From a virus (taxonomy: Duplodnaviria > Caudoviricetes): a DNA stretch of 64,000 nt. Under the pieces are notes generated by a model. That model was not told where the DNA came from. It did not search any database and saw nothing but the letters and a program-made list of their open reading frames with translations. Of the stretch, positions 19,928 through 58,448 are shown piece after piece. Each line of letters starts with the position of its first letter. The first letter of the stretch is position 1. A program made the translations under genes and the position numbers. Location of the stretch: positions 32,001 to 96,000 of the IMG/VR virus record IMGVR_UViG_3300017909_004140, one strand, 5' to 3'.

Positions 19928-20386
19928 GTTGTGGCCCGTTCTGTTGCTAGGTGGTGCCATACCCCATTAGACTATGCCGCTAAGGGCATATCCATAGGTG
20001 CAAAATTATCGTTTGCAATTGTTTTATTCTTGCGGTTAAGGTCGCTTGCGCACCTGTCTCTCGATTTGATTTTTATTGAGTCTGTCGATCCTATTTCGCC
20101 CCCATCATAAAAGCACGCGTATCAAACAAAATTGCTCATAGTTTTCTTCAAATCCTGTTTCATAATCTGCAAGAGGAGCTCCATTACTTCCAGAAACCCA
20201 GAGTCTTCTGAAATATCCGTCATAGGAATCTTCTACTTGCTGAGGAGTTACTTTACGAAGGTCTCCCTTAACCATATAGTAAACTCTACATTTTTCTTTG
20301 AATGTTACCATGCGTTTATGGTGGAGGCGCCGGGTACCGCCCCCGGGTCCAGTCCGCCTATTCTATCTCTTCTCAAACGAGACAAT
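19928..20386 (-). ncRNA. ssrA: Permuted two-piece tmRNA: acceptor piece ~20386-20319, intervening segment 20318-20104, coding piece 20103-~19928
   Basis: GGACCCGGGGGCGGTACCCGGCGCCTCCACCA precedes GGGGGCGAAATAGGATCGAC. Acceptor stem GGGGGCG/CGCCTCC has G3:U70. Tag frame 20016-19972 reads ANDNFAPMDMPLAA*. Outer ends are approximate. Confidence 0.93.
20105..20311 (-). CDS. 68-aa hypothetical protein inside the tmRNA intervening segment
   Basis: ATG 7 nt after the CCA end; TGA ends 1 nt before the mature 5' G. Confidence 0.65.
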   Translation of the reverse strand: MVTFKEKCRVYYMVKGDLRKVTPQQVEDSYDGYFRRLWVSGSNGAPLADYETGFEENYEQFCLIRVLL

Positions 20387-20737
20387 TTATTCCTTGAAAA
20401 ATAGCTCTAGTTCGTCTAATATCCAAGTACTAATTTCTAAAGTACCAAATAATATAATTAGCATAAAAGGCACTATTATAAATAAAAATATAGTTAGCAC
20501 TATTTTTTGCCAGCGATTACATTTTTCTACATAAAAATGAGCAAATAGTCTTAATCCGGCTTTAATTTTTTCTTTTAACCAATCTCCGAAGAAATTACGA
20601 AAAAGTCGCATTACTATTAATATAGGAGAAGTTATAACATCCCATACAAGTAATACTACGTCTACTATTAGATCAATAATATGATCTATTGTAAACCAGT
20701 TTTTTATTCTGTTTTTGAAATTATTTTTGTAAACCAA
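20387..20737 (-). CDS. Hypothetical membrane protein
   Basis: Two hydrophobic segments. Confidence 0.6.
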   Translation of the reverse strand: MVYKNNFKNRIKNWFTIDHIIDLIVDVVLLVWDVITSPILIVMRLFRNFFGDWLKEKIKAGLRLFAHFYVEKCNRWQKIVLTIFLFIIVPFMLIILFGTLEISTWILDELELFFKE

Positions 20738-56713: not shown

Positions 56714-56745
56714 CTGTCTAACTACAATTTATAATAAATTTTGCA

Positions 56746-56795
56746 TTGCTCAATCCTTAAAAATTTTATAATATATATTTATTGATTGAGTGAGA
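56746..56795 (+). promoter_or_regulatory. T5-like promoter P1
   Basis: TTGCTC-17-TAATAT, then ATTGATTGAGTGAG. Confidence 0.65.
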
Positions 56796-57015
56796 AGGCT
56801 AACGGCATCACTCTGAGCTCGCGACGGTAGGAATGCCTGCTCTTAGCTGTAAGCAAAACATCAATCGTGCTTGTACCAGACGAAAGGTACAGCGTCATGT
56901 GACAACGAGAACAGTCACCGCGTATAGGCCACAAGACTGAGTTTAGACGTCTAACAAACCGTGCTCAAATCTTAATGCCTGGGGAGGCGCGAGATACCTC
57001 CCCATCAATTTTTTT
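56781..57015 (+). ncRNA. Candidate structured ncRNA 1 (~230 nt)
   Basis: No ORF; hairpins GAGTGA/TCACTC, TGTACC/GGTACA, GTGAC/GTCAC; ends in TGGGGAGG/CCTCCCCA stem plus T-run. Confidence 0.6.
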
Positions 57016-57016
57016 G

Positions 57017-57064
57017 TTGCTTATTGCTTAAATTTTTTATATACTGTTTATAGAAGTTGAGAGG
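57017..57064 (+). promoter_or_regulatory. T5-like promoter P2
   Basis: TTGCTT-17-TATACT, then ATAGAAGTTGAGAGG. Confidence 0.75.
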
Positions 57065-57220
57065 ATAACCTTCTAGAAAAAACCTCTTCTAAAGTCTCTG
57101 GGCGAGTGCTACGAGTAAGGAAAGCAAGCAAGCCAACGATGCGATCTGTATGAGGCAGTGAGCTAGGCACTTAAAACTTAACCTTCGCTAGTACAGAAAC
57201 TACTCTCGCCTGTGATTTTA
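57050..57220 (+). ncRNA. Candidate structured ncRNA 2 (~165 nt)
   Basis: AGAGG/CCTCT hairpin, then nested GGCGAG/CTCGCC, TCTGTA/TACAGA, AGTG/CACT. Confidence 0.55.
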
Positions 57221-57223
57221 TAG

Positions 57224-57275
57224 TTGCTAGATCGTTAAAAATTTAGTATTATATATTTATAGAAATTGAGAGAGG
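57224..57275 (+). promoter_or_regulatory. T5-like promoter P3
   Basis: TTGCTA-17-TATTAT, then ATAGAAATTGAGAGAGG. Confidence 0.75.
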
Positions 57276-58290
57276 CATCATCCTCTGGGCTTCGGTTCTC
57301 CGCTTCGGCGCGCTTGAACAAAGTGAAAGTTAAAATCCAGTTAATGATGCAACGGAGTCACGGAATCGGTCTCAGCCTCTTTCTCTCATGGCGCTGAACG
57401 TATTTTGTTCTGGCCGCCAGCAAGTCCTGGTCTGATAGTTCAGATAAGAGCAATTATAGCCACCAGGCAGTTATATGAGTAGTTTCGGTAAGGATAACCT
57501 ACTTTAAAAAACCTACCTCAAAGTGTGAACAAGTCTAGATTGAACACACTTTGGTTAGCACTGAGAGTTTCGGCTGTCAGTTCCGCGCCGTTGGCTGTAA
57601 AGCTTGATCAGGCGGATTCTTGTCGTGAGATGCAATTCACGAGTCGGGGAGGAGCTATGCATTGCGCACCTCAAGGTAACTGGCGAGGTTGGTGGCGGTT
57701 ACACTTTTACTCAGGCTGGACAGGCTAGCGTGTGTCCTATGTCACAAATCTTTCGAGAGGTCGGAGTAAATTATAGACTTACATTGTTGAGTCACTGAAC
57801 AGTTGAAGAATGAAGGGCAACTGAATTTTGGAAGCTGATCACACCTCAGCGCTTGCGTTGAGCATACTTTAGCAGTGTAGGGGAGAAGCGACGGCTTTTC
57901 CAGCTCTCCGAGGGGGAGATGCAGTAGAAACAAGGTCTATAGCGTTTCGTGACTGCAACCTTATTACGGTTAGCTCGTTTGGGGGGGCTTATACAGTCGA
58001 GTAGACAGACTTCATCCACCTGTCGTCTCCTGTATAGAGATGGTACGAGCGATTAAGCGGCGGGCGAGGTGCTGGCTTAATATTTTGAATTGAACTGGAC
58101 GCTAACTCCAGCCGAAGCTTAGGCTTGTAAAGTTAGCAGAGCTAGGTAAGCTGTTACTCATGTGAGGCCTTGCCGCTGAATTAGATTCGGGCGAAAGACA
58201 GCGCAACAAAAAGGAGAATCTAGAAAACTTGGGCAACCAGCTTTCTAGGAGTAACTGGGCGTAACCTCGTGTTGCGCCCTTTTGCCTTTT
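57259..58290 (+). ncRNA. Candidate large (~1 kb) structured ncRNA or ncRNA polycistron
   Basis: More GC-rich than flanks, no credible ORF, many hairpins including two C(UUCG)G loops, long-range pairing, bounded by promoter P3 and a terminator. Confidence 0.7.
58257..58290 (+). terminator. Intrinsic terminator
   Basis: GGGCGTAAC-ctcgt-GTTGCGCCC-TTTT. Confidence 0.8.
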
Positions 58291-58320
58291 AGCAAAATAT
58301 AAATTTAGGCAATTTTATAC

Positions 58321-58370
58321 TTGCACGGCGTGGAGATTTTTGGTAATATATAATTAACAAATTGAGGAGA
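58321..58370 (+). promoter_or_regulatory. T5-like promoter P4
   Basis: TTGCAC-17-TAATAT, then AACAAATTGAGGAG. Confidence 0.65.
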
Positions 58371-58448
58371 CGCACATTCTGCGGATCTCAACGCCAATTC
58401 AAAATTACTATACGTAAATGGAGTCTTGGCAGAAACACGTCTCCTCAC
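58356..58448 (+). ncRNA. Candidate small structured RNA or leader 4 (~90 nt)
   Basis: Perfect 10-bp closing stem TGAGGAGACG/CGTCTCCTCA enclosing CGCA/TGCG and GCCAA/TTGGC stems. Confidence 0.5.

Follow-up and report, generated by a model that had tools for sequence, protein, structure and literature searches.

The mRNA of bacteriophage T4 gene 32 opens with an H-type pseudoknot that has been linked to protein nucleation and transcript stability and that serves gp32 autoregulation. The preQ1-I riboswitch (RF00522) is likewise a small H-type pseudoknot, with a first stem of approximately 5 bp, a loop 2 that ends in C, and an A-rich loop 3. RNAs made of several pieces include two-piece tmRNA, fragmented rRNA, and split introns, whose intermolecular helices co-vary. 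Marine phages and cyanophages carry manA RNA (RF01745), a riboswitch candidate (PMC2864571).

The phage locus described here encodes noncoding RNAs that contain an H-type pseudoknot twice per genome. It shares with T4 gene 32 a phage transcript that opens with such a pseudoknot, a functional analogy only, since the T4 element heads an mRNA, whereas those here belong to noncoding RNAs, occur in two copies, and have no sequence relationship to it. The likeness to preQ1-I lies in a second stem formed between a hairpin loop and a 3′ tail and in a loop 2 C that adjoins stem 1. With the multipiece RNAs the locus has in common that modules present in one transcript in some phages form separate transcripts in others (see below).

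The locus lies in an uncultured marine phage contig, a 107-kb IMG/VR virus record, of which we analyzed bases 32001 to 96000 (64 kb; referred to as the window, and the source of all unprefixed coordinates). The genome is low in GC and gene dense and carries tRNAs and a permuted tmRNA. The permuted two-piece tmRNA gene occupies positions 19930 to 20430 on the − strand, and its top-scoring model is alphaproteobacterial (123.5 bits), which may be a hint at the phage host. The RNA cluster corresponds to a gene-free stretch of approximately 1.7 kb (56714 to 58417) flanked by a PhoH-like gene and a small SWIM-finger open reading frame (ORF). The leader of this ORF (58360 to 58417) is invariant in four close relatives except for a hairpin loop and may therefore be a regulatory element.

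A promoter scan and reading of the sequence placed four sigma-70-type promoters in the gene-free stretch, all conserved among relatives. Features common to the four (56740 to 56790, 57017 to 57052, 57224 to 57259, and 58330 to 58365) are an AT-rich block, a −35 box with TTGC, and the tract ATTGAG in the transcribed part; all four presumably resemble the early promoters of phage T5. The promoter of the transcript designated RNA 2 (57017 to 57045; like all RNA features below, on the + strand) consists of a −35 box at 57017 to 57022, a 17-nucleotide (nt) spacer, and a −10 box at 57040 to 57045, and it is kept in relatives. From the −10 spacing and by analogy with T5-type early promoters, RNA 2 is predicted to start at A57052. 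It would then span approximately 170 nt (57052 to 57220), comprising a 5′ pseudoknot, helices P0, P1/P1b, and P3, and single-stranded conserved loops in an RNAalifold consensus of 34 homologues. The next promoter (57224 to 57252), found by the same scan and likewise kept in relatives, has a predicted start at A57259 and would drive RNA 3, a mosaic of modules of approximately 1,030 nt (57259 to 58290) with a terminator at 58257 to 58279.

Homologous RNAs were collected from approximately 60 viral or metagenome contigs. A PhoH protein search yielded four close relatives in which the region downstream aligns with the entire cluster at 70 to 95% identity; the remaining relatives were found by scanning IMG/VR and JGI metagenomes for patterns of conserved RNA words. 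Every true match of these scans is a viral or metagenome contig. The sole pattern match among 185,579 bacterial and archaeal species genomes, in a Methylophilaceae metagenome-assembled genome, falls within coding sequence and is due to chance, and blastn of the cluster and of one distant homologue against GenBank phages (50,697 records) returned no match. Rfam (release 15) gave zero matches to 56714 to 58417, either at gathering score or at E values up to 10, and nothing for RNA 2, RNA 3, or the pseudoknot in five related loci. ARAGORN found no tRNA-like genes in the cluster, and these RNAs are nowhere described in the literature searched. In these searches, the RNA 2 family thus turned up solely in contigs of uncultured marine phages, and it has no Rfam match.

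A preliminary description of this DNA had drawn attention to two hairpins with conserved loops on different stems, one with a stem at 57059 to 57064/57083 to 57087 and an 18-nt loop (57065 to 57082) and one with a stem at 57487 to 57493/57512 to 57517 and a loop at 57494 to 57511. Both hairpins and their recurring motif are present at these positions, and all close relatives retain the two copies. Within the 64-kb window, the 9-mer GGATAACCT has exactly two occurrences, one at each hairpin, and a looser motif pattern has two sites in the full 107-kb genome and none in a reversed control, so that the recurrence is well beyond chance. What did not hold is the conservation of the loops as a whole: the central loop bases (57070 to 57074 and 57499 to 57503) differ between the two copies. 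In all distinct copies aligned, these variable bases are complementary to the 5 nt that precede a conserved UU upstream of the stem. Because the two segments co-vary, we read each element as an H-type pseudoknot, in which the differing loop bases form the 3′ strand of an additional helix, S1.

The order of elements is S1, L1, S2, AUAAC, S1′, A run, S2′; the helix strands thus interleave as S1, S2, S1′, S2′, which defines an H-type fold, and both helices co-vary. In copy 1 (57052 to 57088), S1 pairs 57052 to 57056 with 57070 to 57074, and S2 pairs 57061 to 57064 with 57083 to 57086 and is extended by 57059 to 57060 with 57087 to 57088; AUAAC occupies 57065 to 57069, and the A run occupies 57077 to 57082. 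Copy 2 lies inside RNA 3 (57477 to 57517), with S1 formed by 57477 to 57482 and 57499 to 57504, L1 at 57483 to 57489, S2 formed by 57490 to 57493 and 57512 to 57515 plus 57487 to 57488 and 57516 to 57517, AUAAC at 57494 to 57498, and the A run at 57506 to 57511.

Several lines of evidence point to this fold. S1 occurs as seven different sequences, each with a matching loop partner, and across 20 distinct variants pairs 1 to 4 of S1 and pairs 1 to 3 of S2 are 100% paired, and as many as three kinds of base pair are seen at a single position. When these 20 distinct S1/S2 combinations were permuted, none of 5,000 permutations paired as well. RNAalifold, given the 34 RNA 2 homologues, chose S1 unprompted, with 7 to 18 double changes per pair, and the local minimum-energy fold forms S1 of copy 2. 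For S2, we also considered a mini-hairpin (AGG-AUAA-CCU), which is not kept in relatives L140 and L201; in L160 and L201 the S2 pairs change together in a way that destroys the mini-hairpin, favoring S2 as drawn. The AUAAC segment and the run of 6 or 7 A residues are invariant in 40 variants in which the stems change, and we attribute this conservation to their being the connecting loops of the pseudoknot; the A run could occupy the groove of S1, and its sequence suits an A-rich loop 3 docked on that stem.

Support for the fold extends over RNA 2 in its entirety. In the consensus model, pseudoknot included, 96.9% of cells are paired, versus 41 to 55% in slid controls; both partners vary in 15 pairs, and the score of the model was reached by none of 500 shuffles. 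Helix P0 (57091 to 57096 with 57214 to 57219) links the stretch just past the pseudoknot to the 3′ U tract, and P1 (57100 to 57106 with 57205 to 57211) closes the body of the RNA. The RNAalifold consensus adds P1b, an extension of P1 that pairs 57108, 57110, and 57111 with 57203, 57202, and 57201, respectively, and P3 (57162 to 57166 with 57188 to 57192). In 12 sequences, one P0 pair is A-U instead of U-A; two pairs of P1 have undergone 11 and 14 double changes, and the P1b pairs vary among G-C, C-G, and G-U or between G-C and A-U across lineages. P0 also contains a G-U pair that 32 of 34 sequences retain, consistent with a structure formed at the RNA level on the + strand. In every RNA 2 that has its own promoter, S1 begins 1 to 4 nt past the start predicted from the −10 spacing.

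In RNA 3, pseudoknot copy 2 is the most conserved block. Directly 3′ of it lies a hairpin with a perfect 9-bp stem (57519 to 57553), a counterpart of P0 that encloses no RNA 2-type body. This hairpin is kept in relatives with other stem sequences, so that copy 2 can be described as the pseudoknot plus P0, without a body. The upstream edge of the module is marked by insertions in relatives directly before S1 of the RNA 3 copy: three (L002, L003, and L175) carry a 58-nt insertion there, and L156 carries an entire gene together with a −10 box, so that in this relative, too, S1 would lie close to a transcript start. The L1 of copy 2 is of the type found in L036, L055, and L068, in which the body of RNA 2 covalently follows the pseudoknot in one long transcript. 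Because L036 and L055 have a pseudoknot with that L1 type and then the RNA 2 body, the copy in RNA 3 resembles a module from which the body has been lost.

More generally, the locus is a mosaic of RNA modules, namely, the 5′ domain of RNA 3, a GGCGGG domain, a domain with AGTCGGGG and CGAGGTTGGTGG, a 3′ domain with CGCTGAATTAGATTCGG, and RNA 2, which are reordered, fused, or split by promoters or genes among phages. In L036 and L055, a single transcript of approximately 600 nt, uninterrupted by any promoter, runs from the 5′ domain of RNA 3 through the pseudoknot into the body of RNA 2; the same modules are separate, promoter-driven transcripts in the window, L131, and L140, and their order is permuted in L066.

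Several further observations concern the architecture of these loci. In L055, tRNA genes directly follow the fused RNA. Within RNA 3, relatives L002 to L004 possess an additional promoter that is followed by the same leader (alignment columns ~830 to 880) and of which the window retains a degenerate remnant at ~57800 to 57830. Coding genes have been inserted at RNA module boundaries in several loci (L156:3222-4126, G001 [L207:2030-2560], L201:286-1430, L137, and L202). The RNA 3 homologue of L066 (L066:2831-3000 and L066:3134-3205) contains a tRNA-like element (32 bits) and a manA RNA (RF01745) that exceeds the gathering score, with 61.3 bits, which suggests that the long RNA serves as a vehicle for unrelated RNA modules. 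Like the RNAs of the window, manA is a structured marine phage RNA; it is absent from the window and bears no relation to either RNA 2 or the pseudoknot.

Together, these comparisons make it very probable that the two similar elements represent a single structural module, in which helix P0 follows an H-type pseudoknot, and the two copies would be paralogous. In RNA 2 the module would open the transcript, with S1 at the predicted first nucleotide, and P0, which joins the 3′ U tract to the nucleotides just past the pseudoknot, would tuck both ends of the RNA around the conserved body. The second copy, internal to RNA 3, would have its P0 reduced to a short hairpin without a body. As to function, we tentatively propose that the module sequesters the 5′ end of a stable noncoding RNA, ties it to the 3′ end via P0, and gives the RNA a defined fold; at internal positions it would sequester the 5′ end of a processed fragment. 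As an overall explanation of the locus, paralogous pseudoknot-P0 modules that sequester 5′ ends, combined with an incidental complementarity in trans, seem to us reasonably probable.

The complementarity in question, between 57192 to 57205 in RNA 2 and 57477 to 57490 in RNA 3, led the preliminary description to suggest that the small RNA could switch or dock onto the large one. It is real at 13 of 14 positions and consists of 10 contiguous Watson-Crick pairs (57196 to 57205 with 57477 to 57486), an A/G mismatch, and 3 further pairs. On the RNA 3 side, the 10-nt arm corresponds to S1 of copy 2 plus the first 4 nt of L1. On the RNA 2 side (57193 to 57205), 57193 to 57199 are single stranded, 57201 to 57203 are the 3′ strand of P1b, and 57205 belongs to P1; accordingly, the consensus pairs 57201 to 57203 and 57205 in cis, whereas a single-sequence fold gives 57195 to 57204 an unpaired probability of 0.64 to 1.0. 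In the docking model, the single-stranded 57193 to 57199 would nucleate on L1 of RNA 3, and the duplex would spread over S1, opening the RNA 3 pseudoknot and P1b, so that the body of RNA 2 docks on a module that has none of its own.

Conservation speaks in part for such an interaction. Both 10-mers are invariant in all members of the clade to which the window belongs, in RNAs that otherwise differ by 20 to 30%; the same invariance makes the test for compensatory changes uninformative inside the clade. In 930 cross-lineage comparisons of S1 plus L1 with the RNA 2 arm, no match exceeded 8 nt, and the 10 nt of the window is an outlier against this null. The covalent joining of a pseudoknot of the same L1 type to the RNA 2 body in L036 and L055 also fits docking. 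In G001, this region of RNA 2 differs by a single base and has another perfect 10-nt complement, which lies in the leader of the neighboring inserted gene, approximately 35 nt before the start codon; against this, L191, a close relative of G001, has neither the inserted gene nor the complement.

Outside the clade, the picture is different. The complementarity is not conserved in the homologues there: L161 and L195 share the RNA 2 arm and have no partner in the cluster sequence retrieved, and among the other lineages examined we found no conserved RNA 3-type partner and no compensatory change. Complementarity between S1 plus L1 and the RNA 2 arm averages 4.4 nt within genomes and 4.2 nt across genomes, that is, it is not family wide. 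Where lineages differ in the RNA 2 arm, the cis partner of that arm changes with it; both arms are explained by helices that co-vary in cis, and covariation across homologous loci lends no support to the trans duplex.

The length of the match is also what chance would supply. In 56786 to 58290, 2 perfect complements of at least 10 nt were observed versus a mean of 0.91 in 300 dinucleotide shuffles, 61% of which had at least one. Complements of 10 to 12 nt to other RNA 2 segments occur in the flanks of approximately one-third of the loci. Three other candidate pairings were considered. A partner of the RNA 2 arm after the RNA 3a GGCGGG motif (L140 type, 9 bp) was rejected because the strand concerned co-varies with a cis partner and the trans pairs are broken in L132 and L179. 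Sites with 10 to 12 pairs in an upstream gene of approximately 230 codons (L186, L194, L068, and L144) were rejected because they correspond to Cys-Val codons (TGTGTT) and shift register relative to the Cys codon and because runs of 10, with G-U pairs allowed, are estimated to arise by chance approximately once per 5 kb. An 8-bp complement between 57131 to 57138 and 57588 to 57595, in a highly conserved stretch of RNA 3, is lost in L002 and L003 and is probably due to chance.

Energy calculations favor the duplex. Its core is worth −12.4 kcal/mol, or −8.6 kcal/mol after opening costs, the second best of all RNA 2-RNA 3 sites; the top site is trivial, a cross-match between the 5′ hairpins that the two RNAs share. 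The RNAcofold heterodimer minimum contains the duplex and is 6.3 kcal/mol better than the separate RNAs. The energy model, however, is blind to pseudoknots and penalizes the consensus fold by 11 kcal/mol relative to the minimum that it finds itself; it is thus unreliable for RNA 2, and its verdict carries little weight. We discarded a full-length RNAduplex result as meaningless, since that calculation ignores intramolecular structure. The proposal that RNA 2 switches or docks onto RNA 3 thus keeps a duplex that is maintained in one clade and placed by cofolding, set against a chance length, no compensatory change, and arms that co-vary in cis, and we regard it as possible but doubtful. Most likely, on the sequence comparisons made here, the 10-bp complementarity is incidental or at most an optional alternative pairing. 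RNA 2 has a weak-looking terminator, and if it were read through, the same pairing would become an intramolecular long-range helix.

Comparison with known trans-acting RNAs leads in the same direction. As in antisense and kissing pairs and small RNA sponges (ColE1 RNA I/RNA II; prophage anti-sRNAs), there is a perfect complement of approximately 10 nt with one arm partly single stranded; here, however, half of each arm lies in a cis helix, and there is no conserved partner outside one clade. A more far-reaching proposal is that RNA 2 and RNA 3 are two pieces of one split phage RNA machine, in which the 10-bp intermolecular helix opens S1 and recruits the RNA 2 body. The fused and separate arrangements of the modules recall split RNAs, but the known intermolecular helices of those RNAs co-vary, whereas the sole candidate here shows no co-variation and is of chance length, and we consider this proposal rather unlikely.

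The preliminary description had also taken the shared loop for a protein-binding site, in which case the invariant bases would be recognized by a phage or host protein, such as a processing nuclease or a chaperone that acts on each module. The invariance of AUAAC and the A run in 40 variants despite changing stems, together with the position of the element at module boundaries, is what such a site would show. Invariant loops are expected anyway in a compact pseudoknot with tertiary contacts, and a protein-binding role is not needed to explain the conserved loop. The flanking genes differ between lineages, with no candidate RNA-binding gene consistently adjacent, and we judge a protein site to be unlikely. 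Very improbable, finally, is a preQ1-I-type ligand-sensing aptamer attached to noncoding RNAs rather than to a gene leader: the architecture matches, in that L1 begins with UU, the last base of L2 (AUAAC) is an invariant C that abuts the 3′ strand of S1, and L3 consists of 6 or 7 A residues, but neither the preQ1-I covariance model nor any other Rfam PreQ1 or riboswitch model matched 2.1 kb of sequence or 61 nt of the pseudoknot alone at E values up to 10, both S2 and L1 exceed their preQ1-I counterparts in length, L1 being also the more variable, the tail is not of the preQ1-I type, no coding gene or expression platform lies downstream of the element, which is followed by noncoding RNA and does not lie in a gene leader, and the 107-kb genome has no queuosine genes, QueC and TGT genes included.

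These results add a well-supported phage RNA family of approximately 170 nt, headed by a pseudoknot and new to Rfam, whose fold can be tested. They also illustrate that even a striking 10-nt complementarity in a GC-poor RNA cluster does not warrant a claim of interaction unless it is accompanied by co-variation. The locus itself, with RNA modules that are fused, split by promoters, permuted, and interrupted by genes, is a natural experiment on large phage RNAs as single chains or as assemblies. If RNA 2 and RNA 3 were indeed the pieces of a split machine, they would constitute a modular, trans-assembling noncoding RNA complex in marine phages.
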